A stretch of 64,000 bases of DNA from Vezdaea acicularis (lineage: Eukaryota). The stretch is taken from the NCBI GenBank assembly GCA_026025075.1, contig JAPEUI010000001.1, positions 124,001 through 188,000 of the forward strand. The letters are read 5' to 3'. Under the pieces are notes generated by a model. The model ran no database searches. It was not told the DNA's origin and was given only the letters and a program-made list of their open reading frames with translations. Positions 1,663 through 64,000 of this stretch are shown one piece after another; the stretch's first letter is position 1; every line of letters starts with the position of its first letter. The translations under genes and the position numbers were made by a program.

Positions 1663-3295
1663 AGGAATAGGGCGAGAGGGTTTGCTAGCCCAACTGGACA
1701 GCCAGTCGCTCCACGCTGAAGAGAGAGATAATATACAATCTCAGAAAAGAGCCGTAGCCCAGCTATAGCTCGTAACATCTTCAACTACGAACGCCAGTGT
1801 CGACAGCTTCTCTTAAGAGAAAGTGAGCGCGTGTGATACGCTAAGTCTCCAAGGATGCGAGGGGGCGTGAAACTCAATGGTGTTCCCAGGATGTCCTATC
1901 AAGATTCTGCCTGTAGCGACGCTACACGTGTCTGTGCTCTATGAAGATAGGGTTTGACTGTAGGCAGGTTGAGGGGAGGCAGTCCGACATTTCACGACTG
2001 CTCTCGTCTCATTGGGCCGTTGTTCGAGCCCTAGTGAGAGCCACATCTGGACCATCGACGAGATGGAAGGATACCACCAATCAGATGGAGGCGGAAAGGC
2101 GGTATGGAGGCGGGACGGATCGTGATTCGGCCGGAGCTTGCCCGTCTCCTCGACCGCGGAGTATTAGTGGGCGCACGCGATAAGACGCCCGATTAGCGAC
2201 TAAATGAGGCGGGGAGCTGAAGAAATTCCCCACCACCGCGGGTTTGGGGACTAAGGCTCGCCCCCGCTGGTTCAGGAACGAGATGAGAAGAGGCTTCAAC
2301 ATATTCTATCCAATGCCCATCGCTCGGGACCGGCTTGCTTCAGACGTTCGTAGATCTCTGCTGGAAAGTGGTAGGATCCTTATTCGTCGCCTTGCGTCGC
2401 CTTGGTCTGCCACGGCCGCGCCGACAGAAGTCGCACAACCCCGGCAAGACACGTGAGCAGGACCTGGCGTCGTTTGCTTGTACATCGTGAACATTGATGC
2501 ACTGTGCACGATGGCGTTTCCTACGACGAACCCAGCTTTAGTTAAAACTCGGTGTGTTGTCTTCAACCTGGGAAGAGGGAACCTGCATACGGATTCATCC
2601 ATCCCCGCTGTCGCCGTGAGCCGTGAGCCGTGAGGCTGCCTTCGCATATACTTCAAGTTCTCAGACGTGGTCTATGCTAGGTAGTATGTACCGATAGTCT
2701 TTGTTATATTCAGACTATTCCTTGTTTCTCGTATCAAGCCTTGGCCGCTTCACCGTGGCAATCGGCGACTGAGAGGGGGCGTATTCGAGAGTGATCGAAG
2801 TACTCCATGTGGGCAAAGCTCAAGCGATGGCCATCTTGTTTGTCTATGGTCATTCTTGGAATGCATGTGTCGGACAAAATCAAAGCCTTCTCTAAGCTGT
2901 TTCTGTGTCTTATCTCCCCACTTATACGCTTTCCACCGGCTTACTTGGCATTTTTCTGAGAGTCCCAACTAGCTCAACCTTTCAGCATACAAGGGACGCT
3001 GTGTTGCATTATAGGATCGATTGTCGATTGAACATGCTGGTTCACAGTGTAAAGACGCCCTCTTGTCATTGCCTGTGCATTTACAACGCGGCCTTCTGTC
3101 CTCTATATCGCTTTCGTTATGTGAGCTTACCTTCATTAAGAAGCAGGCCTCACGTCATTTGAATGGGCTCCCATTGTACGAGAGACCCTCCGTTATATGA
3201 GTGACAGTTTAGACTATCGGCAATCTCCAGTTAGGGTGGCATAAATCACAGGGTCATGGGTAGGTTTAGGGTAACTATCGTCTCATCACGTATCA

Positions 3296-3477: not shown

Positions 3478-4579
3478 AAGTTTCTCTCTCTAGCAATATG
3501 TCTGGCCTTAGAATGCAAGAACGTGTGGCGAAGCTCGCAATCAAGGTTCCCCACAACATTGATGCAGTCGCCACTGTTGCAAGATTGAGTGACTGAATTG
3601 ACAGCATAGAATTAGCGCCTGGAAAGCACTTCTTGCAACGTTTGTTTGGTTCGCTCTCCGCCTCAATCAATGTAGGAAATGTCATCGAGGAAGCATATTT
3701 TTCCAAGGGGCTGGAGTTCAACGGCGGGGAGGAATTCAATGATGGGGAAGAAAGCCCCCTTCGGGACTAGCTTCCGTGGGGCTTGCTTCGTCATCCGGCA
3801 AAGTCAACGACATGGCGTCCTAAGCCTAATATAACCGATGACTGACATCGGGCTTAAAATTGCCCGCTTTCTGGAGGCTGACAGGCTGGCTCTAATTCTG
3901 ATAATTGGGGGCTGAATTCTTCTCGACACCCTGGTAGAGGCTGTCCATAACGAGTTCGCAGCGCGGGGAAACGTAGCAGCGTTGCAATTCGATATCGCTC
4001 TTGGTCGGAAACGTGTCTAGTTCCGCAATTGAAGTTGCAATTGATAGCGCATTCAACCCTTCGTAGATTTTATATTGCGTGGGCAACGCAATTGCTGATG
4101 AAGCTGTATTCGCGTCTCTGTTGAATAGGGGAAGATCAGCGGGGAGCTTCTAGACTTCGCCAAGGTGCGCCCTTTGATCCCGTTCACACCGACGCTCGTG
4201 AGTCACTCAACCATGCTTGCTATGGTATCCACTATCATCCTGAGCGGGACCGGGATATCATATACTCTGAGTCATGCAACTCTCCTAGGATATGGCCTTA
4301 GGACCAGACGCGCGTGCGATTTCATTTCTTGTTCGGGAAGTGGGACCATCGTTACTTGCAGTTCCATCTGTCCCATGCCGCTTCCTCAGCTGTCTATAAG
4401 TAGAGCCATCTCTACCCTTCCTGTTCCGCTTTTTCTCCATATCAAACTTAGCTCCTTCCCAGCTAATTTGTTTCTCAACCTTGGATCCATTCTTCACACG
4501 ACTCTACCAAGTGAACCCTTACACGTTCACACAATTCCCGTCGCAAGTTGAACAGACCTCCCCCACTACCAACACCACC

Positions 4580-23369: not shown

Positions 23370-26300
23370 TCAAGATTTATGCCTCTTGTTACTACCACCT
23401 GTGCTACTGGTGTTCCTCCTCTTTTTGCCCTCAGCCCTCCAATAGTCATCCCTCTCTCGTTTTTCTCTCCCTTCTCTCTTCTCCTCATTCTCGGCAACTT
23501 TCTTCCGATATACCTTTCGTCTCTCTTCCTGTGCAGTCCGACGCTTCTCGACCTTCGCGTTGCGAAGCGTCATCAATTTCTGCATGAGATCTCGGGCTTT
23601 CTTCTCTTCGCCTCCCACGACCACTGCGCGTTTCTGCATGTACGTCTGCTTACGTTGTGGTTTCATTTGTGCAATTTGGGACTTGAATGGCAAGTCGGTT
23701 GCGAGTTGCCGTGGGACCCTGAGAGGGTTGAAATGGCGCGTCTGCCGCTCGATCTCCCTGTACTTCGAATTCTTCTGCGACGGAGTCTCGATTCCTTCCG
23801 CCCGCCGTACTTCGCCTGTAAGCCTCATGCCCTGCCAACTAGCTGATTCGCCCGACTTTCCGTGTTCAGGCACTTCTAATAGGTTCGTGACGGGGTTATA
23901 GAACTTGTGGGGTCGTACAGGATACCATGCTCGAAGAAAGATGATGTCGCTCATCAAGACCTTGTCCTCAAATGTAGCCCGGAAATGCCCCTCAGGTTTA
24001 CTCAAGGCACGCTTAATCTGACCTCGAATGCCTGATACCGTTCTGATGCTCGCCCCTTCGAATTTTGCGATCTCGAGTGCCGTGCTGAACATGTCCTTAA
24101 CGAAGACAGTGTTGCGGAAGATTTTGTAAGGATGTCCAGTTAGCTTAAGCTTCTTGACGATCTCTGTGCTTTCATCAACGTTGAGGACGACCCCAGTGGC
24201 AGAAATTCTGAAGCCCCGATTCTGATTCGAGAATGATTGAACACAGCAAAAGCCCGTGTTCGGCGCTATCAGGGGTCCATAGAAAGTCCCGAAACAATGC
24301 ATATGCTCTGGAGTGTACTTCAACATACGGTTCCTCGTCCTCGAATCGGAGATACTGTATATCGGCATCGTCTGAAACCGCCGCCATCCAAGGGAGAAGA
24401 TCAAGGGGTCATTGGTCTTCAGGATCTTCTTATGCCACCTGTGCCGCTTGATGCGCACTTGAACGAAACCGAATCGGTCTTCTGTAGGCGTCAGACCCCC
24501 AACGAGGACCGGAAAACGTGGATTGAATCCCGTGATAAATTCGCAAGGGACAGCTTCCAACACGATGCGAGCGTAAGTGCCAGCCTTGAAGCCTTCAACT
24601 CGGACCCTTGATTGTTCATCGAGCTGGTCGAACTCATTGCGATTGATGGCCAATTGCTTTTGAATCTGCGCCTTTTGCGCGTCATACCAATCATCCTCTC
24701 CAAATTGCTCTTCAGCCTCTCCGCCGTTCTCTTTCCTAGAATTCGCCTTATCGTTGTTGAATCCTTCACGATCTTCTTCTTCGAATCTTAATTTAAGCTC
24801 CTCCTTTTTCCGAGCATTCTTCTCTCGCTCAGCCTCTAGACTAGTTTCCTCGTCTACTACTACGGCATCGTTCTGAGGACCTTCAGCCTCTAAATCCTCA
24901 AAGACTCCATCGCCTTCGTCGTCTTCATCCATGTCATCATCGCTAAGCTCGTGATCGTCCTCACCTGCATCTCGCGCCTTCCTTCTAGAGAGATTCGCAG
25001 AGGCGAATCGACTCCGAAGTGCCTCTATATTGTCTTCCTGAGACCACTTTTTCTCTAGCTCCTCGTAATTGTATGCCGGTATGAGCCGGTCTTCACTTAA
25101 GATATCCTGCTCTTCATGGCCTGCTTTTTTGAAGAACTCGTCCTCTTCATCAGAATTGGCCTCTCCGTTCCGCTCCTCTCCTTCGCGCGAACGTCCTTCC
25201 CATCTCTTCAGGACTTCAGCTGGTGTTAAGGACTCGTCGTACATCATTCGAGCTAGATCTACTATTCGATGGTGCGGTTGGGAAGCATGTAGACGTTTGG
25301 CATTCTCAGAAAGGTTTTGTTTCCATCTTAATGTACCGTCATCCTCGGAACCCGAGAAGTCTTCCTCGGCGAGGTCTCCGTCTTCAAGCTCTTGATCTTC
25401 AACTGGAGAAACTGAACCGAGATCAGAGTCACTGTCGAAAAATCTGTAATCTTCTTTTGTCTGATCCGGTTCGATGCCTTTGTTGTCTTTCGAGTTGAGT
25501 CCCAAATATTCTGGTACTGGTCCATTATCAAAGGCGTCGGCGTCCTCGCCATCATCCTCATCGTCATTCTCCAATTCCTTGTCTTCGTCAAGGTCAGAGT
25601 CCTCATTTCTCTCTAGGAAACGTGCATTCCTCGGCTGGCGACGACCCAAGTCATTGTTGTTGTCCTCATCCCCAGGTCGGTGCAAAGTGTCGCCTCCGCT
25701 AAACAGCCTTACTCCCTCGTCCGCTTGACCGAGAACACGCCCACGTCCTTGTAGACCAATAACCATAGATTCCCCAAGGCCCTTTTCGTCCCCTTCATCA
25801 TTCGTATCGGCATTAAAGTTGGAACTCCGCACATCAATGTAAACTGCGTCTTTGTCTACTAATACACCACCCACGTCCGACATCGGTGCAAACAACAGCT
25901 TTTGCTTCTCGCCTAACCTCTGCCTCTTAGACTTGCCAGTTGCTTTGGCTATCGCTTGATCCATGAAAGGAGTTGGACACGGATCTGGCAGACTTTCGAT
26001 CATTGAGACCGTCAGATCTCCCACTCCAGGTACGTGAACTCGAGCGCCCTGGGCTGGGAAGTTCGTACCTCGTAGATATCCATATAGCGCTACCGTTCGG
26101 TCGCATTTTGGATCTTCCTCGATTGCCGTCGGAGGGGTGAGATCTAATATACGGTCTGCTAGGCAGTAGGGATGCGAGTTTCGCCAGACTAGTGGTCGAG
26201 GATTCTTCATAACGGAGATAAAGCGCGAGATATTGTGAATTTCCCGATCTGGATACCGCCCATTAATGATGCCAGACAAATAGAATAGCTTCGCCCCCTG

Positions 26301-27050
26301 GTATAACTCGCTCCAAAATCTATGCTTCAGCCTCTTCTTAGCTTCACGCAGTGTGTTCGGTTTTCGAAAAAAATCCAGATGTGTAAGGATCCCGAAGATA
26401 TTCCCTGGCATTCCACTTGCTGAAAGGACGTTGAGAAATTCCATTGTCTCCATCTCGAAGCCGAAGTTTCCATCGATCATTAGTAGCACGATGTCTGCTA
26501 TCTTCGAAATATCTATCATACTGGCTAGCGAGTCTGCGGGACATTCTATGAAGGTCAACCGTCGGCGCTTTGAAGCTACGACTGTGAGTGGACCGGCTGG
26601 AGACGAGAGGTTATGTTTTGTGTAGCGTTTGATTAGTGATTTAATGAGAGTGGTTTTGCCGACCTGCATAAAGCTGTCAAGAGGCCGCTCAAATTGAAAG
26701 TAGGAGAGACCTTACGCCTGGTGGTCCTACGACCGCAACGACGACGGGCGGCGCCTCCTCGGGTATCCTGTCCACCAGAGGGACGTGAAGTCGCTTCTCC
26801 TTGACCTGTGCATGCTATCAGTGTCCCAAAAGCCACTCAGTATGCCAAGGAATTGATTTTGCATACATCATGAGATCGCGCCGCCTGCTTCTGCAATCGC
26901 CCCGGATTTGCATAAGTGAAAGCTTTCGGGTTCGGACCTGTCGATGTTAGTTTTAGTAACCAGGAATATAGAATACGCTTGACACAAACCTCCGGTGTTT
27001 TTCTTCTTTTCTTTGGACTTCCGATGAGGCCTGTTGGCTTGATCCTCCAT
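23370..27050 (-). CDS. BMS1: Ribosome biogenesis GTPase Bms1
   Basis: [10 protein letters not shown]...PNPKAF...[12 protein letters not shown]...[16 protein letters not shown] (three introns between about 26665 and 26990), [53 protein letters not shown]. Confidence 0.97.
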
Positions 27051-28123: not shown

Positions 28124-31100
28124 CTACTCCTCCTCATCTTCCCATCCACCGTGCGAGACCAACCAGTCCGCAACGCGCTCCTTGACGTCCAGGAGCTCTT
28201 CTCCCAACGCCTCCTTCCACTGATCCTCCACCGTGCGCACCTTCTCCTTTAGGTCGTCGGTTAGCCTTCTTTCCTCATCGCGGCGTACGTCCCGCATCTC
28301 GCTGTCAACGACGGCAAAGTCTTCGCCGGCGAGATAGCGCTGTGTCTCCATAAGGCGGCAGTTCGCCGCCGTGACGCCGCTCTTGACCTCGTGAAGCAGA
28401 CACAAGAGATTCGTCTGCGCCTCGATGAATTGATACGTCGACCGCTCAGAATGGTCTAGCAGCGAATGCAGATATTGCATAGGATGTTCATGGTACGACG
28501 GATTCTCCTCGTACTCATCTGCCGGTATCTGAATCTCGAAGCCGTCGAGGTCGTTGGGTATTCGGTGGAGGATTTTCAAGAGTCCTGGGGCGATATCCCA
28601 GAAAGCCGAGAGTTGGATTTCGACGCCGCGCACCACGTTCTCCTCGATAATCTCCATGAACTCTTCCGTCCGTCGCAAGGTACCTTTCTCGTAGGCGATC
28701 TTCTGGTCTTGGTGGTCTTTCTGGAAGAATTCTTCCGCTTCCCGTGCTTTCTCCTCGTTGCCTAGGAGGCGGTAGGGTTGAACGACCATTGCTTTGTATC
28801 GATCGTTACGATCACCAAGGAGGTCGTAGACCTCTTTGTGCAGCTGTTCTCGAGCTTCAAAGAGCCATTTAAGTAGGGTGAGTTTTTCGAGTAGTTCTGG
28901 CTGCTCGTCGCCTTGCTCTTGTGTCGAGTTCGGGTTGCTTTCCTGTGCATCGACGAACAAGTTGCTCCGTAGCTCTTCGATACACTGCGTCGCCCTGTCT
29001 ATCCGCTCTGTCAGAACAGAATGAACCGGCTTCACGACTTCTGTCTGTAGCTGGTTGAATTCCGCCTGGTTCCGAGCCTTCTTCTTCTCGTTTTCCTCGG
29101 CTTCTTCGTTAGACTCGAGTTTTCCGGCTTCGGTGTAGGACATGGTGCCGGCCTCAATCTGCCGCTGAATGTCCTTTCGGATGAAGCTCCTCCGTTTTTG
29201 GGAATTGTCCTCGGCTTTCTCCCGAGCCTCGTCGATGCTGGCAATGTACTTCTCCTTGATAGCCGTGATCTCTGTGAAATCGCTAACGGCACGCACGACG
29301 GCCCTTATGGATGTGAGATCTGGGTGGTTATTGTTGACTGCCGGATAATGCCGAGGGTACGGTGGCGGAAGAGTAACGAGGCGAGAGACATCCAATTTTC
29401 GAGGATCTGGCGTGACTGGAGTAAAGGGTGCAGGCGAGTATGGGTTATGTGGTGGGGGCGGTGGTAATCGCTCGTGCCAGCCCGTCTTCTCTGGCGGGTA
29501 CTCATTGGGCCCGTAGGCATTGCTATTATTCGAGGTCCCTCCAATGGAAGCGGTTGGTGTGCCTGATCCATCCCACTGCATGGACTCTCTTAGCTCTCTT
29601 GGTAGCCCCATGTATTTCGACTCTCGTTTCGACCGTTCAAGGCCCCGCCCTACGCCGCCTCCGTAGACAGAGCCGTCGTTGCTCGCTTCCCACCATCTGC
29701 TGGGTGGGCGGCCTCGTGAGCTCAGCTCATCGGGAGCTTCACTCACGTCCATACTCGGGATTGGCGATAATGACGGCATGTAGCCACCAATCCAGGGAGC
29801 GTCATGGCCCTGACTACTGCTTGCGCCGCTTCCTGCGCTCGAAGGGGAGTCTCCTTCCGGTTTGGGCCGAGAGGAGGTGCCGGCAGATTGACGAGCAGCT
29901 GCGTTGAGAGAGCCTCGGTGTGAATTTGGGCTCGGTGGTGGCCAGTCAGAACCGCCCGACCCGCTTGATGGAGTCGCGACTTCGGATCTCCGAGCGCTGT
30001 TATATGGCCTGAAAAGATCCCGAGTTAACTCGAGAATCTCGGACCCCATCGCATCAATGGCTCCGGCGTATCGCTCTCTCCTCATCCTCGACTCGTTCAC
30101 GATGAAATCGGCGAATATTTGGACACGCTGCTTGTCGCTCTTAGCGGCTGCCTCTCGTTCAGCAAAGGCATTATGCCGTAGTATCGCGGCATCCATGAAA
30201 TCATCTCGTCCGTTGTCGCGCTTCGCACTTGTATTACTTATTCGAGGAGAAGGCTTCTCGCTCGGAGGACGAACAGCAAGAGAAGATGCACTTCGGCCAT
30301 CATTGAAAGGACGAGGGGATGTGCCCGAAAGACCTCGGTTGGCAAGGCCAGTGGTGCCATTTGTCACGACGCCAGCTGACCGGGGTGTTGGTATGGAATT
30401 TTCGCCGTTCGTGTGACTATGAGCAGAACCAGGACGAGGTGTATAAGTTGCAGCAGAATCAACCGTCAGCACAGATTTCGCGCTCCCAATGGGTGCATCC
30501 GGACTAGTGATACTCCTTGCGCTCCTCGGTGTAGATTTTGTGATGGCAGGTCTCCTAGCTAGACCCGTAGGCGATGGCAAAACTAGATCTGCGGGCTTGA
30601 CTTCCGCATCTGATGGCCACGGGTTGTTGGTTACACTGATCGTTGCCTGCGGCTCTACAGCCCGACCTTTGCCGGAACGACTCTCATTCCTTCTTTCCCG
30701 GATGCCTTTGTCGTGTCGAGTCTTTGATCGCGCCATTCGCCCGTCCCCGAGTCCTTGCTCTACAAGCATAGCATCTCGGTCGTAACCGACTGTTGGTGCC
30801 GCTGTGGCTGGAAACTCATCACGATTTCGAGGTGAGGAATTGTTGATCGCAGCCTCTACATCCAACTGTAAGCCCTCTCTCTGGTTGCTGCTTGAGCCGA
30901 CCTGAGGTTGAGGCTCTTCGTCGACCCAGTCGGCGGGGGTTGGAGGTACTGGAGGCAAGCTCGACTGGTTCCTTCCTGTTGTTGGCGGCCTCCGCGTCGG
31001 GGGTGCGGTCGCGGTCGGCATGGAATAATTTCGTGAGACTTCTGCTGTTCTATTCAGACTCTGAGACCGACTACCGGCAGGCGGTGGCCCTGGTGGCGGC

Positions 31101-32238
31101 GGCGGCGGTGGTAACGGCATTCCTGGCGCCCAGCGCGCAGCTGAGGCCAATTGACCATCATCAGGCCTAGCTCGTGCAGCTGGAGCTCCTCCGAACCCTA
31201 TCGTCCCGGTGGATGCAGCTCTGCGGGCGGCGGGTGGTCGAGCTTGCTCTGCCCCGTCATTGACAAAGTTGCTGCTTGCAAACCCTCTCGAGCCACTCGT
31301 GTTGGAAGGGCCAGGTTCAGTCGGGGGCACTGCTCCGAAGTTTGCTTGTGTGATCGGTTGGTTTCTTGACCGCGAAGTCAAGTTAGAAAGACTGAAAATC
31401 GGTTGAGTCCTGCTCCTAGAACCCGAGCGAGCGCGTCGTCCAGATGAGTTTGGGGGTGGGGGGAAGGCATAGGTGGCATCCTGAGAGGGCGTCGAGGTAT
31501 TTGGCTGAGGGCTTGGACTGTTCATAGGGACTGGGCTTTGCAGGTATGAAGATTGCGTGGCGAAAGGTGGGGCACCCCGGCCGGTGGTATTGAAGCCCGA
31601 AGGATCAGGCTGACTCGGGGCACCTTGTGGTGAGGGTTCCGGTTGATTTTGAGGCGAAGGCGTCTGTTGGTCAGGATGCGGCCGTCGTGGGGAATATGGA
31701 GGAGGAGGAGCCACTAATGATCACAGACGTCAGACATTCCACTCGCCGTTCGAGCTGTATTTAAAGCAAGTAGGGGCTGGCCACAAGGGCTCAGATGGAC
31801 ACAATTGATGAGTCGAGCTTGGTGGGGCATGTGCCTGAGAGGAAGGGGCAATGCTGGGAGAAAGGGAAACATACCATCCGACGGTGAGACTGGCCTTGCT
31901 GACCCCGTTGTGAATGATCCATGAGGGACATATGGAACGGCTGGCGTGGGAGTGTTTGAAGGCGCACTCCACTGCTGTGGATTGTAGGGAACGCTCTGAA
32001 TTGCACTTCGCGGAGTAGGAGACGCGTACGCCTGGGCCCCTCCAGGAGTGAATGGCTGATGATATCCTGTGAACGGGCTGCTCATCGAAACGGCCGTCAG
32101 AGGCGTCGGCGCCGCCAAGGATGGTCCTCGGCGCTGAAGGTCGGCCACCGACGTCGACAGCGGTGGTGGTTGCATATCATGATGCCGTCGTTGAGCAGCG
32201 ACGCTCGAATATGCGCCTGGCGGCGGTGCGAAGTTCAT
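28124..32238 (-). CDS. Large hypothetical protein (Pro/Ser-rich disordered N-terminus, helical/coiled-coil C-terminus)
   Basis: Exon 32238-31875, intron 31714-31874 (GTATGT...CTGAC...TAG), then a 1196-codon open frame. Blocks SRGRPPSRWWE, LDVSRLVTLPPPYPRHYPAVNNNHPDL and EQGDEQPELLEKLTLLKWLFE look conserved. Confidence 0.88.
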
Positions 32239-50971: not shown

Positions 50972-53579
50972 CTAGGCTTTCTCAAGGGTTGTCTCGGATT
51001 CTTTGGATGGCTCTTCAGAGGAGCCGGCACCTTCACCCGGAGCGTCATCTCCCTTCTTCTTCACATACTCATCGTAAACCGTAAGAGCTTCATCAACCTT
51101 GGCACGAAGAGCAGCATCGTCATCAAGACTAAATATCTGTCAGTATAAAGCTCACGGAATGGAAAAGTAATAATGAGATCTTACAGGTGCAAGAGTTCCA
51201 TGTTGTCCATCTCGAGGAGCATACCAGTAATCTTACCAGCCAGGGAAGGTTGCTGAACAGCAATCTTAGGATACAAAGCCTCGCCGAGTAGTTGTTTTTG
51301 TGACTGTTGAGGAGCCGCCGCTAGGTCTTGGGCAGTGAGTGAGAGACTTCCGTCAGCGCCAGGGGCTTGGCCGACGCTGGGCTGAGGAGTCATCTGCGGT
51401 GGTATTTGGCTCCGACCTGGTTGAGGGAACCCAGCCATGGGCCCTGGACGCATAGGCAAGCCTCCACGGCCACTCTGTTGAGTGAAGTTCGCTCCGCCCG
51501 GTCCGCCACGACCACTTTGTATTCCAGCCATGTTGGGAGGCATACCTTGCAAAGGCATTTGTCCTCTCACACCACCACCACGTCCAGCAGCGTTAGTGGC
51601 AGCAGCCTGAGCTTGTGCCATGGCTTGAGCGTACAGACGTTGGTCAAAACCACCAGCACCTTGCGGCATGACCCCAGGAGGCATATTCCCCTGTCCAGGC
51701 ATTCCATACATCTGTGGTGGAATCTGCTGTCCCGGTATTGGTCCTCCACGACCGGCAAGACCACCTTGCTGAGGCCCGAATGCACCTGGAAACCCGCCGG
51801 GCCGGCCACCTTGGGCACCTGGAAGAGCCACACCTCCAGGCTGAGCAAAAGGCGCTGCACCACGTCCACCTGGCGGGATGAACTGTTGTTGTTGTTGGCC
51901 CGGACCAAAGTACATAGGCGCCTGCATGAACTTTATGATAATTCAGTATTAATTCGTATGATGAGCAGCATACCTAAGGAGCTCACCTGTGGAGGCATAC
52001 CAGCCACAGCGGCAGCTTGCTGGAGCCTGATTTGGTTTCTTTGCTGAATGCTGGCTTCCAACTAATTGAATGTCTTAGAAAAGCTGCGCTCTTTGAACAT
52101 TACGAATGGAAAACATACCTGGTTCTTACGAACGTCCTTCTTCTGAGCGAGAGCAACATAAAGTGGCTTGCCATTGACCATACGTTGGTTCATCTCTGTT
52201 ACTGCCTTCGTGGCCTCATCAGCATTGGTGAAGCATACGAAACCGAAGCCTTTGCTTTTGGGGAGGAGCTTTTTCTCCGGCTTAGCTGAGTCCTTGTCTT
52301 CGCTAGCCTCATCTTTAGCCGCGTCTTTCTCCCCTTCCTTTTCTGCGGCCTTGATGTTCTCCTTCTTATCCTTGGGCTTATCCGTGGAGTCACTCTCGTC
52401 ACTAGGAGCATCACGCATTACTTTTGCAGAGCTAATAGTACCATAGCTAGCAAATAGCTCGCGGAGCTTCTCGTCGTCCATGTCGTCGTCCAGGTTCTTT
52501 ACGTATAGATTGATCCCTTGATACTTGGTGGCCTTCTCTGCACGGGCTGCTTCATGCTGCTTGCGAAGCTCTTCTTCACGTTCATGCTTCTTTTGGGCAC
52601 GGCCAACGTACAGGTTCTGCCCTTTGAAGTCCTTGTCATTTAGGGCTTCAACAGCTGCTGATGCATGCTCATGGTTGACGAAGTTGACGAAGCCAAACCC
52701 GCGACTCTTTCCATTGTCCGAGTTACGAGCAAGTGTGGCTGATGTGATCGGACCAAACCTCTCGAAAAGCTCACGTAATTCTTCATCAGTTACCTCAGTC
52801 TCGACATTTTTGACGTAAACATTCGTGAAGTTTGCCTTCATCTCCTCGAACTTGCTTTGTCGGTCTTTCTTCGGGATATGATGACCAACATAGACTTTCT
52901 TTTCATTCAACAACATACCATTGACATGTCTTATAGCATTTGTGGCGGCTTCTGCGGTTTCATAGTGAACGAATCCATAGCCCTTGGAGTTTCCAAACTC
53001 ATCCTGAGCAACCTTGCAGCTGAGAATGTTGCCGAACGCAATGAAAGTGTCGTGAAGTGCCTTGTTGTCAATCGCAGTATCGAGATTCTTGATGAAGACG
53101 TTGCCTTGGCCAGTCTTGCGGAGAGCGGGATCACGCTGAGACCACATGATTCGGCAAGGAAGACCCTTAATGAGGGTGTAGTTGAGTTCCTCCAAAGCTC
53201 GCTCACCATCAGCCGTGTTGTTGTAGTTCACATATGCGTATCCAAGTGATTTTCGAGTAACTGCGTCTCTGCAGACACGGATAGAAGCGACTTGGCCAAT
53301 GGACGAGAAGAGTTCAAAGAGCATAGCCTCGGTGACAGAGGTGTCAAGTTCGCCGACGTACAAGGAAGCAGAGTGCCCTGGACCAGCCCCAGGCCCACCG
53401 GGGACCGCAGAGCTGGGCGTCTGTACAACGCTATCGGGATCTTGAGACCCTTCAAATTGGGCAACATTGGTGTTGATTACATTTCCATTTGAGCCCAAAC
53501 CGCCGGTAGTTGAGACATCAGTAGGTTCTGTGGGATTATTTGCCGAAGCAGCAGTAGCAGCAGTAGTTTCAGATGACAT
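50972..53579 (-). CDS. PAB1: Polyadenylate-binding protein (4 RRM + PABC/MLLE), 4 coding exons
   Basis: [44 protein letters not shown] domain [12 protein letters not shown]...[13 protein letters not shown]. Last exon [15 protein letters not shown]...LEKA stops at 50972. Confidence 0.97.
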
Positions 53580-54537
53580 GATTATCTTTAGTCAAGTGTG
53601 ATGGACTAGAGCAAGGACATGATTAGCTAGGTCAGACGACCGAAGGACTGATTTGCTAGTTAGGTGACCAAACGCTTCCGCGGTGGCTGCAGCAACAGGC
53701 AGAGGAAGAAGGAGAAACAGCTGTAAGTAATTTCGGGAGCGACGCACTGGTATTGTGGCAAAGAGCTTGTCTATGTGGTCGGGAAGTTTATGGTCGGAAG
53801 AAAGGTGAGTCGGACAGACGCAGCAGAGAGGCTTAAAGCAAGTGCCCTGACTCGTTCCTATCTGATAGACTCCCTTGATAAATACTGAAAGCTTCAGTAG
53901 AAGCCTAGATACTTCGATGGGAGAGGCGAATCGTAAGAGAGATGGTGTGGAGGTAGTTGCGCTGAGAAAATTGGGCAGAGTCGGCGGTTTGCAGAAGTGT
54001 ACGCAGCGACGGATTTTCTGATTTTCAAATTTTTTTGACAGAGGTTACGAGAATTTTCTGGAGGGGTAGAGGCAAGACGAGACCAACACGTGAAGTCGAC
54101 GCTGTGCCAACTCTATAGGTAGGTCGAAGGGTGTTATAAAGTTGTTGAAGAGCAGCTGCCTTAGGTGAATGGCTTTCTTCAGCGGCGGATTTTTTGAAGG
54201 TGCGACCGAAACTAGACTAGCGCGTACCGAAAGTTCACAAGCCCAAAGCTTCGCCTGGACCTGTCAACATGTGGTGCACATTTCAGAAGGCGACCTTCCC
54301 GGGCAAGGATTGGTAATAAGATTTAGAGCACCCAGCAGCCATCCCAACGGTCATTTGTTAGGATCAAGGGTAGTTTAATGAACGAATAACCATGACTAAC
54401 AAATACCTAATATATCTACAAAATATACAAGACGCTCATTCAATCACCCAATTATGATATACGAGATGACCTCTCTTCCGCCAAAAAAATAGAACAAGAC
54501 CCTTTAGACAGGTATTGTCTATCGCAGAGCCATAAAC

Positions 54538-56684
54538 CTAGAGTTTGGCCTTCGGGGGCTCCAAAGTAGGCAACAATAGGTCACGAATGTCGCAAGCTGC
54601 TTCGTTAAGGAAATGGCTCATACGTTCGCTTCCTAGGCCTTTGCTGACGACATTGAATTGAATGCTGCCAGCAATCAGTGGGGCACTAAGGTAAACGGTG
54701 TTGCATAAGGGTAGACTTACCTATTCTCATTGATCATATATGCAATCCCGAAGCCTTCATCGATGACTTGACTCCATCCGTATCCATTGAAGTATTCAGA
54801 CGATAGTTGACTGGTACTAAGGTACCAGCTGCTTGTATAAGCATACGCTGGATCCTTGTAGAGGGAGGGGAGCTCTTCGCCAGGGCTCAAAAGCTTCTTC
54901 AATCCAAATAGATGTCGGTCCACACCTTTGCCATCCGATGCATCTGAAATATACTTGACGTGGCTGCTAAGGGCTTTGCGGAAAAGCTCTGTGCAGATTT
55001 TCTCGTCGATATTTGGATCAGCCATCGCGTCACAAAAGGCGACGCTTTCGTCAGATACTGATCGACAGGTCTCGGTTCTACCTTGCTGGAAACGTCGCGT
55101 TGCAGCTGACTCGTAGGTTGGCCGGTTTTTGCCGTACATCTTATGGTAGGCAAGCTGTATGATCATTTGGACGTAGGCGTCTGGCGAGCATTTGAACTTC
55201 TTGATGAGGCCCTTGCCGTACCCCTGGAACGCTTGCACTTTTAGCTCGTGTGCGCCAAATTGTTCAGCAAAGTCCTTTGTTGCACGAGAGATCTCGTCCT
55301 GCACCTCTTTTGAGATATTAAACTTGATAGGCTGAGGATCTGGCAGGTTGGACCGTGTACTTGGATTACCAAAATCTAGCTTGTTGTTAAAAATCATCAT
55401 GTTCGCGTAGTCATTAAGTCGGTGTGTTGGTGTGCCGTCCATCATGGAATGCTCTCCCATGAAGCCCGATGTACCGTTGTCGTTGACGATGAATTGGAGA
55501 GGCTTGTCAAACCATCTATTCGATCCGTCTCCATGCCAACATTGATGGGCTCGTTCTTCTAAAGTGACTGGGGTCGCATCGTCTAGACAAATGATGAATG
55601 AAGACGATTCAATTGTCTCGAGTGCTTTTTTGTTGGCAGAGTTAGCACTTATGAGCTTTTTCCTGGCCTTTATCTCGTTAACAATGTACTTTCAAATGAA
55701 TGGGAACGAGTCGCAAACCTCCGTCCAAACATCCCTGTTTTCCGTAGTCAGTATTCCCACGGCGGGTGCCCTTTCGGCTTTCTCAAGGATATGCTTGAAT
55801 TGCTGCTCTAGTTCCGACGTATTTAACTGCTGACCACCGACTTCATGCATGACCTTGAAGAATTGATTCTTCCGAATGACCACAATATGCCTATTTGTCT
55901 CTGCTGGATACTTGACTGGATGATCTGCAGGTTTTGAAGGTATGCGGCAAGCATTGAACATCCATTGGTAGCTCTCCATGGAGATAGGCAACTTCTTCAT
56001 GTATTCTGGCTCAAGTGTTCCCGCGTCTACCTGCTTCTTGAACTCAAGAACCGCGGTAGATAGTGCTGCTGCACGCTTCGCAGGGGCTCTCCGGCGCCGA
56101 TCATCTCGATGAGAGTAGAAGTAACTAACATATGGAACGACAGGGTCACGATAGCTTAGGTATGCGGTATCATTCCACCACTCGTAAAGCCAATTCTTGT
56201 GCTTTGGGTCCTCACGCCTGGCTATTAATCGTTCCTGCAGCTTTTCGCCTGCGCCGCCAGGCTTGATAAACTCGGCAACCGCCCTTTGCGTATTCTCGAA
56301 TTCTGGATTGCTCAGAAGAGGGTGCACAGATTTGATATACCGATCCGCCGTCTCCTGTAGCGTAGGCACGGGTAATCGAGGTAAGGAGTCCTCGAACCTC
56401 AGCATTGGGCCTTTCGTATTATCCTCCCTATAGCCTAAGAAACCATCGTCTGTCAATGAACGAAGCCGTGTACGGGATGGGAACAAAGCGCGAGCATACC
56501 GGCTGGAAGCCCCGATGAGTTTGCCCTTCTAGGATTGATGGGCGCCATGATAGTAAGCTGTTACAGTTATGAGTATAACGGAAAGCAAGTTTAACGCAGT
56601 CCGCACCTTTGGTCTCAACGTTGGGCTTGGTCTTGTCCGAAGAAAGGACGACAGTGCACGCCTCCGAACGAGCGCGTTAAACAT
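54538..56684 (-). CDS. CAT2: Carnitine O-acetyltransferase, mitochondrial/peroxisomal (Cat2/AcuJ type), 5 exons
   Basis: LPRLPVPTL, NRWFDKPLQF, GEHSMMDG, TYESAATRRFQQGRTE, LSTSQL. N-terminal presequence MFNALVRRRALSSFLRTRP and C-terminal AKL PTS1. Confidence 0.95.
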
Positions 56685-57267: not shown

Positions 57268-58687
57268 TCAGATTTTCAATCTCCTGAAAGTCGAAGCCAT
57301 CAGCCCGTTCTTCCCAAAGACCCACCAACTGCTTCTATGCCGTCCGGTATACCAGGATATGAATACGACAAATGCGGCTAGTCCCGCAGCTCCCACAGGT
57401 CTTCGATACTTCCATATTACTGCTGCTATATTGCGTCGGAGCTCGATTCTACGAAGCTGAGTAGCTTGTTTGTTGTAGAGACTCTTCCCATCATCAAGTG
57501 TTTGTGATGAGACCTCTTCAATGTTGCTGGCTGTCTTGAGAACGCTATAGGTCGAGATCTGCTTCCAAGGTCCCAAGGATGATGGAGGATGTCTATAGTA
57601 TAATTCTACCGTTTCCTGTATCAATTTCTCAATATCTAAAGGCTGTGGGAGCTTGCATAGGACTGAATGAAGCATCTCTGGTTCGTCAGGCGGTATCTCA
57701 AAGAGAGCATCCTTTTGCAGGATAACGATCTTCAAAGCCTGTTTAGCAGAAACATTCTAAAAGGTGGAGAGCAGACGTTTACATTAGCAAATAAGTATAC
57801 AGAGAACACAGCTTCTCGAGCTAAAAGAACGTCGAATAATCTTGCAATATCAGAATATTCCTGGATATCATGAGCGTAGAGAGTAAGTGTGGCAGCTAGA
57901 GCAAAGAAAGGTTGAGTCTTTGATAGATGAGCGCAGAGTTCTGGGCTCTCCGAATTTAGGATGGATGGCAGCAGTCGCAAATGTGCTAGCGCTGGTGCGA
58001 GCGAAGGTAGCATGAAGTCTCTAATTCGAAGTACGGACAGACGCGCAACGGCAGGCACTGAATTCTGAGGCCCAAGAACTAAAAGGAAGACCTGGCAAAT
58101 ATCATGATAGCCTTGGAAGTAGTTTAAGAAGGGCTGCTCCCGCAGGACTTGGGTTATGACATCTGATAGCTCCGTTTTCCGTCGTTCTAGTTCTTGGGCC
58201 GTTTGGTCTATCAAGTAACAGAGTAAGCATAAAGCTCTTTATAAAAGCCTATGTAAGACTTACGACTTGGGTAATATATGAAGGAGCGCGCTACATCTAG
58301 TCTGACCTGGTCTTCATCGTGATGTCGGGGTAAGAAACGCCAGTCGAGCCCTTCATTTCCTCCATCGACAGTAGCATCTTTGTTGTCAATACCTAGAAGT
58401 ATAGGCCCTGTTCCGAGTATTGCTTAGCATCGTGAGCAAGGTCCTTGAGCCGGACAAAGCTTACAAGCAATTTTCCGAACATCATCCTGGACTAGACCAT
58501 ACTTACTCGTGGCAAGCTTTACTAAGGAGCGTAGGTCTTTGCCTCCGCAGGCCTTGAGTATGAGCTTGACCTTTACTTCTTGAGCTTCAGAAAATTGGAA
58601 GATCTTTGAATTTGCTCTGAGAGGAAGAGAGCTCGATGAGTTCGACCGTGGAGCCTCAGTATTGTTTGGTGGGGATTGTTGCGACAT
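57268..58687 (-). CDS. GYP8: TBC-domain Rab GTPase-activating protein (Gyp8/TBC1D20-like), 4 exons
   Basis: GLVQDDVRKIAWPILLG, DEDQVRLDVARSF (Arg finger), YFQGYHDICQV (Gln finger), PFFALAATLTLYAH, and a C-terminal TM segment. Confidence 0.88.
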
Positions 58688-59186
58688 TGCAGGTCACACT
58701 GTATGTGCAGTTAGCCGATAGGGTTTCGCCCAAATCCTGAGTAGCGCATAATCATATGGATTAAAACGCAAGGATCTAGATTCTTATTACATAACTTGCA
58801 TGATGCATTTATAACTGTAGATATTTCACGTTCTACATAACAACGAGAGCGATTGCCGAGTTCCCCAGAATCTGCAACTCCACGCCCCGAAATTCTTCGC
58901 ATAATTCATTGTGGACGTAGCGAAGAATGCAGCGAATGTTTAAAACATTGACTTTACCTAATTTTTCAAGGTTAAGCCGTCACCGCATTTGTAAGACAAC
59001 CTTGACACTTCAGATTTACGCCGGCTCCAAGTTTGACGTTTGATTCGCTCAATCTAGTCCGCGTGAGTAATGCCCAGGCAATTGGCGACTTCTCAAACCT
59101 AGTAATGATCTTCATAGCTCACTGAAATTAAGGACGCCTAGGAGGGCGTGATGGTATAATGTGCGGGTCTAATAGAGTGTGCCAAG

Positions 59187-62100
59187 TTAAAGGACCGGAT
59201 AGGAGGGCAAGTTAGACGATCGCTTCATGCGCCGCAGTCTCCTTGTCTCATCTGTTCTACCAAAGTTTTCGATCTCGGCGGTACCCTTTCGTGGAATTTC
59301 GTCCTGAATATAGATGGACGATATGGATATAGGTGGGTTCCTACCAATGCTGTAAAATGATGAACGACGACTTGAAGAGGCTTGACTCGAGGCAGCTAGA
59401 TGCGAGGGAGCTGCTCTTGTAGAAGCAACATCATCAGCACGAATGCCTTCTTGTGTAAAATCGCCGGCATGACCGTCTTCGCTGGCTCGATTGTGAGCAT
59501 CTCGATATGGCACTTTTGTCGAGCTTGTGTTTGTAAGACCATCACCGAAGATGAAAGCACCAGAGTCAGGAAATGCCGGTAGTTGATGTGGGGTTTTCCC
59601 TGCGGACACCACTTTTTGCAAATTATTGGAGTATTTCCATACTCGATTGTCGAGGAGATGACTAGAGCTTCGGCCGACGCGCTCTGAGAGTGCTTTAAGA
59701 CAAGTCGCTGTTGCACACAGGAGATGGTTGTTCTCTGGCATACGGAGCCAGCCACTAACGCTATCCTCTGACACTCGACATATAGCATCTCCAATTCCGC
59801 GGCATACCAACACTCTTTCTACAATGCCTGTAAGCTCGGGCCAACCACCTGTGTTGCATACGTCGGTCCATTTAAGTCGAATACCCGAATCTCTCATTGC
59901 GATATCCATGAGTTCATAAGCAAGCAATTTGTACTGATCACCTATCAATTGCTTCTCAGCACGCGTTTGCTTGCAAGCGGATAGAGAGGTCCAAATCTCT
60001 CGAACAATACTCTCAAGCCTTAAGGGTTTCGAAGGAGCTATGGTGTCTTGGGCAAGATTTCGGTGTTCAGATAAGACTTTATATGCAGCATTTCCGGAGT
60101 CCCAATGACGTGAAGCGAACGGAATCGCCATGGGAATTTGATCAGCTCGAATCCGAAGATGAATCATGTGCAAAATAAGACATATAGCGGGAACAAGCCA
60201 TGCGCTTTTCGTATCTACATCGTATACAATATATGGTGTACGTCGGGCTTGAAGCAAAATCGATTCGTAGTGGCGCGAATCTTCTCCGCTTGGTTCAATT
60301 CTGGTTTGTGAGACATGCCAAGTGACAGTGCTTAGGAAGCTGAATATTCCCAATCCGGAGGTCCCAGCAGTGCTCCCAAAACTCTGCACATCAATGCTTT
60401 TGGACTTTTCGTGCAGCCCGGTACGCTGCGTATTGAAAGTAGCGTCTTTAGTGCCCAGTCTAACATACGCTTGTTCACACCATCCCACAAAATGTCTTCT
60501 CCTGTTAATATTTTCTAGGATATGCTTGATATCTATGTCTGTCGGCCCAAATTCGTTAGTTGAAAGCACGGAGATTTCTGGCAGATCTTGTCGCGAAATG
60601 ATACCATTCTGAGGGCCTCGGATCAAATGCCATTGTATAGATTCTTCGCCAAACTTTTGCGTAGGTATCAAAGCGGTTGTGAGACCCATGAAGTAGTACT
60701 GTCCCCCAATTTCAAATGCGGTAGAAATCCCCGATAGGCCCATCATGACGGCTAGGGGTACCTCGAGACCTTTCTCCCCCTTCCTTGGAGGAACTGAGAA
60801 ACCGTCTGCAATTACGCTCCGTGGAAGTAAAGTATGCCAACAGGTCCCATTCTGGACTTCCGTGGGTTGTAGATCCGCGAGCGCAACCAAAATCCTGGGA
60901 TGAGAGCCCGAGAAATCTTTGCCAAGTAAAGCTCGGGATATTGAAGGTTGTTCGAAAGATGAAACCCTTAGAGCCGCACATAGCCATAACAATATTTCCG
61001 TGAAGTCAAGAATGAATTTGTGTTGAGCATAAAAACAAATTGTTGCAACAACTTCGTTTGAACCACTCCGATTCATCTTCTGAGTAATAGAAAATCCAAG
61101 CTGGTCTGTAAAGGCTAGAGAGTGATGATCAGAATACACACACACACACACATATATACAATCTTTGAGAAACATAAGCATAAGACTTACTAGATGCATG
61201 CAGGCTCTTGCCGGCCACAATGCTATCAATTGCATTGAGGATGGTGTGCCCGACTCCGGGCAAGATTTGGTCCGCGTAGGAAGCACAATCTATCGCTAGT
61301 AGTTCATATTCGTTCCCAATCAACACCAAAACAGAGCCTAACTGCTGACCATCAGAACATTCTTGAGATCTGAAATTGGGAACATCCCAAAATAGTGTAA
61401 ACTCAACCAACTCAGAATCGGAAGCTGAAAATTGATGAAGCGCTTCTAACACTTCATTACGAGCGGCCGTCAGAGTAATCATATCATGCAAACGAACATC
61501 TGAGCGCTTGTCAAGCTGTTCTTGATGGCTATTTACAACTTCTTGCCATTTGGTAGAGGTACGTAACGCCGACAAATCATTTCGTTCATCAAGCTTATCA
61601 GTCAGACCTTCCAAAAGTACAGAAGATGTGAATTCATGGTCGCTCATTAGGCGTCGATGGTTTCTTAGAATGGTTAGTTTCATCGAGACTGCCTCCTCAA
61701 GCTTTCCTTGCAGGATAGACACATTTGCCAAATTATCCATTGCTTTCAGTGTTGGCAGGTGTTCTGGTCCAAGTATTTTTTCCTGTGAGGTTAAAGCTTT
61801 GCGGTACAAGGTCTCGGCCTCATCCAGCTTGCCCTGGTTGCTATATAAGTTGGCCAAACTATTGATGGTGCTAAGAGTGGACTGGTGCTCTGGCCCGAGG
61901 GCCTTTTCTTTTCCCTCTAATACTCTGCTGTACAAGGTCTCGGCCTCATCCAGCTTGCCCTGGTTGCTATATAAATTGGCTAGATTGCTGATGATGTCGA
62001 GGGTTGACAGATGCTCAGGCCCCAGGGCTTTCTCCTTTCCCTTCAATGCCCTGTTGTACAAAGCTTCAGCATCGTCTAGCTTGCCCTGATCACTGTATAA

Positions 62101-64000
62101 ATTGGCTATGTTGTTGACGGTATTAAGAGTTGATAGGTGCTCTGACCCCAGGACTTTCTCTTTTCCCTCCAATGCCTTGCTATACAAAGCCTCAGCCTCA
62201 TCTAGCTTGCCTGTGCTGCTATATAAGTTGGCCAAATTGCTGATGGTGTAAAGGGTTGACGGGTGTTCATGTCCCAGGGCCCTCTCCTGTCTAGCCAATG
62301 CTCTCAAGTACAAGGCCTCAGCCTCATCCAGCTTGCCAGTGTCGCTATATAAGTTGGCCAAATTACTGATGGTATTAAGAGTTGACGGGTGCTCTGGCCC
62401 CAACGCTTTCTCTTTTCCCTCCAATGTCCTGCTATACAAGGCCTCAGCCTCATCCAGTTTGCCTCGACTGCTATATAAGTTGGCCAGATTGCTGATTGTG
62501 TTAAGGGTTGACGGGTGTTCACGTCCCAAGGCCTTCTCCTCTCCAGCCAATGCTCTCAAGTACAAGATTTCGGCATCAGCTAACCTGCCTTCTTGATGAT
62601 ACAAGCTGGCAAGATTATTGAGGGTACTGAGGGTTGATCCGTGCTCTGGCCCCAGCGCTGCTATATATCCATTTGATGCTCGCTGGTACAAAGGTTCGGC
62701 CTTTGTAAGCTCGCCTCTCTCACTATAAAGATTGGCCAGGTTGTTGACAGTATTGAGTGTTGATGTGTGCTCCGACCCCAAGGCCTTCTCTTTCCCTGCT
62801 ATCACTCTTAGATACATACTTTCTGCCTCTTGTAGCCTGCCTTTCTTAGTATACAAGCTAGCTAGATTGTGGACTACTTCCAGCGTCGACGTATGTTCAG
62901 GCCCTAAAGCCTTCTCCAGTCCATCTAATGCTCGTATATCCATATACTCGGCCTCATCCAGCATGCCTTGATCGGCATATATATTGCCCAAATTACCCGC
63001 TGTGATGAGGGTTGACGGATGTTCCGGCCCTACTGCTTCTTCGTATCCGGCTAGTGCTCGCCTATACATCGCCTCAGCTTCGGCCAACCTACCTTCGTTA
63101 CTATAAAGCAAGCCAAGATTATTGATTGTCTCAAGCTCTGGAATATGAGCCGGATCCGCTAAATTCTTAAGCCCAGCCAGTACCAGGAGTAGCAGTGATT
63201 CGGCGTCTCGCCATTTGCCTTGGGCTGTATATAATGCTCCTAGGTTGTTTATCGTACGGAGCGTTGATGGGTGCTCCGGCCCTAACTTTTGTTTGAATCC
63301 TTTCAAGGCTTGTTGAAACATGGATTCAGCATCTACAAGCTTGCCTTGTGAATTATACAGAAGACCCAGGTCATCCATTGTATGTAGCGTCGATGGGTTA
63401 TCAGGTCCAAGAACCCTTTCCTTTTCGTTCAACGCGAGTTGATACATTTTCTCAGCCTCCTTTAGCTTTCCCTGGTCATGATATAGCCTGCCTAAAACGT
63501 GAAAAGATTCTCCACTAGACGGAGTTCTCACTTGATAGCTATCATCAACCTGTACCTCCATAAATAACTTTAAACAGCGGCTAGCATGGGGCAAAAGTCG
63601 TCGCTTTAGTGCATAGCTATTTGTATTTAGCTCTGTCGGTACCAATGAGCATATACAGCTAAGCGCTAGACAGATCATGGAATGATCGAGTTTGCTGTTG
63701 AGGGCGTTCAATGTCCAGTCGTGAAGAAGGGAATGCATACCAAATCCACCAGAGTGATTTGGTCCATTGATAAGACCGAAGTTATGAAGGTTCTTTATCG
63801 TTCTCATGAATGTGCTTTTGGATTGAGCTATAGTCTTCATCCACTCCGGAACATCTTCTGTCCCTGCAGCTAAGAGGTCAAACCAAACGTCTTGATTGTC
63901 GAAGTACGCCCAGAGTCGCAGTAGTTGTACGGCCGCTTTATCTTGCTGACGCAAGAGATTAAGTGACATGTTCCAAGTTCCATAGAGTGGGACTTCACAG
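59187..64000 (-). CDS. Fungal NLR-like protein (end of NB-ARC/NACHT region + 15 TPR) fused to a large uncharacterised C-terminal domain; 5' end outside the window
   Basis: Frame is open to the window edge (LYGTWNMSL..LLRLWAYFDNQDVWFDLL..MHSLLHDW..RRLLPHA, typical of the region after a fungal NB-ARC). 42-aa TPR repeats follow. Intron 61115-61190 (GTAAGT...CTGAT...TAG) joins ORF 61129-63969 in frame to ORF 59187-61286. Confidence 0.85.
61137..61152. repeat. (CA)8 microsatellite inside the NLR intron
   Basis: Read directly from the sequence; it explains the VCVCV seen in both overlapping ORF translations. Confidence 0.9.
61612..63501 (-). repeat. Array of 15 x 126-nt TPR-encoding repeats
   Basis: Consensus xNLANLYSxQGKLDEAEALYxRALxGKEKALGPEHPSTLNTI; units 9-14 are also similar at DNA level. 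Confidence 0.95.

Follow-up and report, generated by a model that had tools for sequence, protein, structure and literature searches.

An uncharacterised family domain behind the repeat array of a likely NLR-type receptor gene in Vezdaea acicularis

Towards one end of a 64,000-nucleotide stretch of the Vezdaea acicularis genome (assembly GCA_026025075.1, contig JAPEUI010000001.1; this whole stretch is called the window below), two overlapping frames on the minus strand code for a long array of tetratricopeptide repeats (TPRs) and for several hundred residues of a different kind. The locus raises the question of whether these frames make a single protein, what the segment behind the repeats is, and what it might do if the gene encodes one of the NOD-like receptors (NLRs) of fungi, where NOD stands for the nucleotide-binding oligomerization domain. 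We show here that the two frames belong to one gene and that most of the segment is a conserved domain, which we call X. From the sequence, the gene appears to encode a receptor of the NLR type into which an uncharacterised family domain has been integrated.

A single gene split by an intron

The gene covers positions 59187-64000 of the minus strand, from the edge of the window (63999) to a stop codon at 59187-59189. Two long open reading frames (ORFs), 61129-63999 and 59187-61289, overlap here in different frames of this strand. The first contains exon A (61192-63999; P0001, 936 aa), which is open at the window end, and the second contains exon B (59190-61112; P0002, 641 aa), which runs to the stop codon. 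Direct reading of the DNA showed that exon A ends in ...CTG CAT GCA TCT A, with the last base, at 61191, being the first of a split Thr codon, and that it is followed by the donor GTAAGT at 61190-61185. On the 3' side of the intron, CTGAT precedes the acceptor TAG, which ends at 61115, and exon B opens with CC TTT ACA GAC CAG. Splicing joins A to CC to give Thr, and the product reads ...SLHAS-T-FTDQLG... in frame. The intron (61115-61190, minus strand) is 76 nt long and of phase 1, and its retention would lead to an in-frame stop after 20 codons, at the end of ORF A (61129). It also carries a (TG)9 microsatellite at 61136-61153; a change in the length of this repeat could affect the efficiency of splicing while leaving the protein unaltered.

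Homologues carry the sequences from the two sides of the intron in the same order. P0003, which is the best match to exon B, aligns in colinear fashion with both exons: its residues 59-222 match the last stretch of exon A (E 3e-25), of which residues 151-222 correspond to the beginning of X, and its residues 251-811 match exon B (E 7e-157). The 28 P0003 residues between the two aligned blocks lie at the place of the intron and may, to judge from the alignment, be a translated in-frame intron. A phmmer query made of the 81 aa that close exon A matched 40 of 157 fetched homologues (domain E < 0.01), and in the rows checked this match lay about 30-45 aa upstream of the start of the exon-B match (P0021, 308-373 and then 411; P0110, 1050-1110 and then 1147; P0076, 573-639 and then 666). 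Domain X thus straddles the intron and has the same order in its homologues, and therefore the TPR frame and the X frame are one gene split by an intron. A preliminary description of this DNA had proposed the same intron, and both the splice signals and the frame agree with it. Its estimate of about 780 aa past the last TPR was close to the 803 aa found (161 + 1 + 641), and all the motifs that it listed are present in the translations of the two exons.

Exon A starts with about 170 non-TPR residues. Residues 19-102 of P0001 (63694-63945, minus strand) align with positions 6-92 of the 95 positions of the DUF7779 profile (Pfam PF25000, E 5e-4), with a score of 20.7 bits that is under the Pfam cut-off of 27. 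DUF7779 is linked with NB-ARC, and this stretch is presumed, on the strength of the profile alignment, to be the helical or winged-helix part that follows a NOD beyond the window. An ESM Atlas feature search with the pre-TPR part pointed to Ascomycota clusters with DUF7779 and TPRs, which we treat as a lead only.

The TPR array itself (61666-63492, minus strand) consists of 14 in-phase units of 42 aa with a half unit at each end. Pfam profiles matched exon A with E values of 6e-176 for TPR_12 and 1.2e-154 for TPR_10, the latter in 15 stretches. A motif scan recovered an LGPEHPSTL-type motif in 14 units with an exact spacing of 42 aa between residues 175 and 762 of P0001, so that the 15 TPRs counted at first sight agree with the TPR_10 stretches and, with the terminal half units, with the motif scan. 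At the DNA level the array has a tandem period of 126 nt, with about 6-6.6 units at 74-78% identity. Between the last TPR and X lies a linker of about 85 aa (61414-61665, minus strand), in which Pfam found nothing above noise. Its alignment to the corresponding part of P0003 is weak.

Extent, family and conserved residues of domain X

Domain X comprises about 600 aa, from around residue 863 to residue 936 of P0001 and from residue 1 to around residue 525 of P0002. Its first part, of about 70 aa, is encoded at 61191-61413 and contains the motifs FxWDxP...LGSVLVL.G...C.SY; its main body, P0002 residues 1-525, is encoded at 59538-61114, both on the minus strand. The protein ends in a low-complexity tail of about 115 aa that is rich in Ser and Arg (59190-59537, minus strand). 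About 60 residues past X, this tail contains a short motif, SS.Y.[LI]G.NP (P0002 residues around 585-600), that can also be seen by eye in P0003, P0004 and P0005, its closest relatives.

We searched 1.84 billion representative proteins with exon B using phmmer and obtained 1869, 884 and 87 matches at E <= 1e-3, 1e-10 and 1e-30, respectively, where the figure of 1869 counts clusters at 50% identity. The best match, P0003 (E 6.8e-143, 45% identity), itself begins with TPR_10/TPR_12 repeats. Precomputed Pfam labels assigned PF28131 to seven of the eight matches of near-equal length and to one of the two longer ones, and exon B matched seven proteins with this label at E values from 2.1e-142 to 9.8e-14. 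The PF28131 model is absent from our local 2025 copy of Pfam, and membership is taken from the similarity to these labelled proteins. The six relatives with names are all hypothetical proteins of Pezizomycotina, from Aspergillus, Gaeumannomyces, Glutinoglossum, Circinaria, Pseudogymnoascus and Rhexocercosporidium. These comparisons place the X of the window in a very large and fast-diverging family, the named members of which are all from Pezizomycotina. The preliminary description had held that its reading would suffer if the tail matched a well-described domain already common behind TPRs; the relatives do carry the PF28131 label, and the family is in that sense curated, but nothing on it was found in print. 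Our literature search returned no paper text matching PF28131 or DUF7779, and none describing X among the papers on integrated decoys or domains of fungal NLRs, the supplementary tables of PMC12258605 being outside this search.

The domain scan covered 54 homologues in which at least about 230 residues precede X; 53 came from the best 150 of the 1869 matches, and P0011 and P0012 were added, one protein counted twice being subtracted. In an alignment of 54 sequences, with a mean identity to the window X of about 25%, eight columns were invariant (C91, W92, G143, P150, W161, H162, G210 and W424, in P0002 numbering), and the window copy keeps all of them. Among 158 aligned sequences, C91 and W92 (60837-60842, minus strand) were each conserved in 155 of 155 and H162 in 156 of 156. 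Next to the latter, in the triplet Q160-W161-H162 (60627-60635, minus strand), Q160 was present in 150 sequences. D298 was found in 148, H315 in 130, and Glu or Asp at E400 in 146; all four of these residues are likewise kept in the window.

Structure prediction with AlphaFold2, using the alignment, gave a mixed alpha/beta model for P0002 residues 1-545, with a predicted local distance difference test score (pLDDT) of 85.4 and a predicted template modelling score (pTM) of 0.71; in this model the pLDDT fell below 50 from residue 528 onwards. Modelled alone, the C-terminal half (residues 275-530) reached a pLDDT of 91.2 and a pTM of 0.90. The globular character that had been ascribed to the region behind the TPRs is thus also predicted by the models.

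Searches for a known family or fold gave no convincing match. Foldseek with the two models reached best E values of 0.38 and 0.25 and no convincing solved fold; the N-terminal half, with C91 and H162, was modelled only inside residues 1-545, and its residues 87-118 and those beyond 214 were barely tested. With the same limit on the C91/H162 half, the matches listed by Foldseek and VIA included no papain- or transglutaminase-like chain. Against sequences in the Protein Data Bank (PDB), the best E values were 0.44 with phmmer and 0.61 with a profile. None of the 54 members matched a model in PADLOC or NCBIfam. In the local Pfam copy there was no match for exon B or for the tail of exon A, and the 54 members gave, at E <= 0.1, only seven chance matches, each in a single member. 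An ESM Atlas feature search with exon B produced no usable match.

Partners of X and the surroundings of the gene

Ten of the 54 homologues carry ankyrin (ANK) repeats, TPRs or NACHT upstream of X, and the other 44 do not. TPRs were found in P0003, P0018 and P0043, ANK repeats in P0043, P0076, P0082, P0110, P0124, P0150 and P0011, and NACHT in P0110 and P0117. The order of domains is NACHT, ANK and X in P0110, NACHT and X in P0117, and PNP_UDP_1, ANK and X in P0076. The sequence comparisons show that X recurs after repeats of the ANK or TPR kind and that at least two proteins have it behind NACHT. Other N-terminal domains were present in 13 of the 54 (SH3, ULD_2, Abhydrolase_2, Response_reg, zf-GRF, KilA-N, DUF6590 twice, DUF7580, Peptidase_M4, SesA with CRC_subunit, Zn_clus and Pkinase), and in 31 no Pfam domain was found even at E <= 0.01. 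All Pfam partners in the 54 proteins lie on the N-terminal side of X, which is followed by at most 133 aa. SesA and alpha/beta-hydrolases are among the N-terminal effector types of NLRs. We infer that X normally makes up the C-terminal body of proteins that stand alone and vary in their N-termini. The tail had also been likened to an unnamed domain in fungal proteins that bear the label 'Pfs domain', which would tie it to the PNP_UDP effector class; X is not PNP_UDP_1 (PF01048) and has no Pfam match, and the link is limited to co-occurrence, with PNP_UDP_1 as a separate N-terminal domain in one of the 54 homologues, the P0076 protein. The idea of a hidden domain common to the variable N-terminal extensions was rejected after an all-against-all BLAST, in which 31 of 52 extensions were singletons and the sole large cluster was repeat-bearing.

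Two further loci with X were recovered when metagenome DNA was scanned with an alignment of X (A4); the same kind of scan with a single protein as query found no relative. At the first locus, L001 (1587-3985), an ORF with ANK repeats ends in the first part of X, as seen by eye although phmmer gave no score. After a gap of 113 nt, a different frame encodes the remainder of X, with 28% identity to the window X, and the break falls at about the position of the window intron. At the second, L002, a fragment with 50% identity to X (3653-4076; profile positions 96-210) is divided between two frames and has the look of a broken copy. At a distance of 1.8 kb upstream of this fragment there is an ORF with DUF7924 (270-1841, E 7e-13).

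In the window, Pfam identified genes for a RabGAP-TBC protein (57268-58693), a carnitine acyltransferase split across two frames (54717-56528), a protein with multiple RRMs (52062-53591) and Bms1/Tsr1 (23370-26711), and a sulfate permease gene is also among the neighbours. Since these are ordinary genes, the receptor gene is not in an obvious NLR cluster within the window. Two long open frames, 28124-31720 and 1-1740 (-), of 1198 aa and 580 aa, had no Pfam match at E <= 1e-5. A second copy of X was not found in the window with a profile that contained the query itself.

The role of X in the predicted receptor

The upstream part of the gene, beyond position 64000, probably encodes a NOD, most plausibly of the NB-ARC type, and the gene is likely to be an NLR. 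According to the accessible text of two sources, NB-ARC is preferentially paired with TPRs in fungi (PMC4986451, PMC12258605). The predicted protein resembles the NB-ARC-TPR receptors of fungi, which belong to the signal-transducing ATPases that have numerous domains (STAND; Dyrka et al. 2014, PMC4986451), as far as these are described in the accessible text, in having a long TPR_10/TPR_12 array with an exact period of 42 aa and moderate internal conservation. It is also similar in having a presumed helical region ahead of the TPRs and in the location of the gene amid housekeeping genes. It differs from them in the approximately 800 residues that follow the repeats and include a globular domain of 600 aa, and in that the NOD and the effector would lie beyond the window.

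Non-canonical domains behind the repeats have been described for NLRs of Sordariales, where zinc fingers, SPRY and PKinase domains are discussed as extra sensors or integrated decoys in the accessible part of PMC12258605. X shares with them, and with the integrated domains of plant NLRs, that it is a non-repeat domain placed after repeats and that it has stand-alone relatives in genomes. In contrast, it is none of the domains named in that part of the source and greatly exceeds them in size. No fold has been recognised for it, and it is found joined to proteins of the TPR type as well as of the ANK/NACHT type. The survey in PMC12258605 used Pfam 33.1 and would presumably have been unable to find X, as the family is absent even from the 2025 Pfam copy. 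The architecture had been called atypical, and this description holds to the extent that no other kinds of post-repeat domain are discussed in the accessible text of that survey.

The reading that we favour, although tentatively, is that X serves as an integrated sensor or bait on the C-terminal side of the receptor. We favour it because X is always C-terminal, because its other partners include the effector types SesA and alpha/beta-hydrolase, besides a peptidase M4 and a kinase, and because stand-alone relatives are abundant, as with the integrated domains of plants. Proteins of the NLR type would repeatedly have gained X on their C-terminal, sensing side, after the TPR or ANK repeats, and its strictly conserved site around Cys91-Trp92 and Gln160-Trp161-His162 would act as a surface that binds a ligand or a modifier. 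The TPR array would pass on any change at X to the NOD upstream of it, probably an NB-ARC, which would oligomerise and fire the unseen N-terminal effector. In a FastTree analysis of 152 X domains, the window X is placed in a starred clade together with P0003, P0004, P0005 and P0013. Like the integrated domains of plant NLRs, X is a non-canonical domain fused to a receptor-type protein and has stand-alone relatives in genomes, and its fusions are scattered on this tree. Of the 55 informative rows 11 are fused, and at least 8 changes of this state are required, a number that was obtained with FastTree only, that draws on many fragmentary database proteins and that does not distinguish gains from losses. 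This limit weighs against the sensor or bait reading, as do several observations that are given below with the explanations that they favour.

The main rival, which we consider possible but less probable, is that X is a C-terminal effector, namely a hydrolase or transferase with a Cys/His site that is aimed by the receptor or by ANK or TPR repeats alone. The invariance of C91, W92 and H162 over 155-156 aligned sequences, together with the conservation of Q160 and W161, is no less compatible with an enzyme than with a bait, and D298, H315 and E400 are also highly conserved. In the model, the invariant Cys-Trp is followed about 70 residues later by the His on a predicted beta strand, an arrangement that may resemble the sites of papain- or transglutaminase-type enzymes. 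X differs from these enzymes in that no sequence or fold match to them emerged from the searches and in that no third conserved residue follows the His. Many homologues consist of repeats and X, or of a variable N-terminus and X, with no NOD, as would be the case for an autonomous enzyme. Against this, the fold searches gave the enzyme no support.

Unlikely, in our view, is that the protein consists of TPRs and X with no NOD at all and is not an NLR, an explanation that overlaps with either role of X. The window shows no NOD, the score of the DUF7779 match falls short of the Pfam cut-off, and no long relatives of P0001 residues 1-175 were found among 135 candidates. NACHT is present in only two of the ten repeat-fused homologues, and eight of the ten have neither NACHT nor NB-ARC in the part available; these may be fragments or true repeat-X proteins with no NOD. 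Likewise, no NOD was found in the roughly 1.5 kb upstream of the ANK ORF at L001. On the other side, exon A continues as an open frame up to the edge of the window, its approximately 170 non-TPR residues would be typical of a post-NOD helical region, and the DUF7779 alignment covers nearly the whole of the profile. Arrays of TPR_10/TPR_12 with an exact period of 42 aa are moreover the type that pairs with NB-ARC in fungi, as stated in the accessible text of PMC4986451, while P0110 and P0117 prove that fusions of a NOD with X exist and most of the database proteins are fragments.

Rather improbable is a fusion that is decaying or is expressed otherwise, in which retention of the intron, with its early in-frame stop, would yield an ordinary receptor ending in TPRs and leave X as a relic or an optional isoform. 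What also speaks for it is the C-terminal end of X, where our own alignment defines a triad of Cys residues. C452 is Val in the window copy (59757-59759, minus strand) and Cys in 136 of 146 aligned sequences, and a segment of about 20 aa with the other two Cys, which are present in 118 and 117 sequences, is deleted between P0002 residues 496 and 497 (59625). The window copy alone among the 158 reads V-- at these columns, and it departs from the near-invariant G398 (Ala) and P446 (Arg). The loss of the triad could thus be a sign of decay, and it sets the window copy apart from the PF28131 family, whose label is carried by the nearest relatives of exon B. The triad is, on the other hand, variable across the family, with CCC in only 99 of 158 sequences, and the 641-codon frame is open, the eight invariant columns are kept, the model is confident and the splice signals are canonical. 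A sub-family with C-H-V/I at the triad columns also exists. The triad loss was considered as a mark of NLR-integrated copies and rejected, as CCC is retained in 7 of the 11 further rows with a fusion.

Two abutting genes, for a TPR protein and a stand-alone X, are very improbable, for although the ORFs overlap in different frames and most family members stand alone, the first 70 or so residues of X are in the TPR frame, so that a gene made of exon B would be devoid of a conserved part of its own domain, and its first Met would be 12 residues into the exon, with no space for a promoter.

A more far-reaching proposal, which we regard as speculative and on balance unlikely, is that X is both a new fold and a new conflict module of filamentous ascomycetes, that is, a domain with a Cys/His site whose rate of evolution matches that of the HET and NLR families and which has been captured repeatedly as bait by NB-ARC-TPR and NACHT-ANK receptors. 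If so, it would be the first family-scale case in fungi of integrated domains of the kind known from plant NLRs, and the stand-alone X proteins would be candidate targets of fungal pathogens, mycoviruses or competitors. Under the sensor or bait reading in general, the stand-alone members of the family may be guarded targets, or the Cys/His site of X may bind the activating cue. With 1869 clusters, no assigned function and no convincing match to a solved structure, the X family represents a real gap, which could be filled by solving a structure or devising an assay. The cues that activate fungal NLRs are considered a crucial open question in PMC10197012, the accessible text of which mentions no domain like X. 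A conserved, structured domain that recurs at the sensing end of such proteins would provide a concrete handle on how fungal NLRs are activated.

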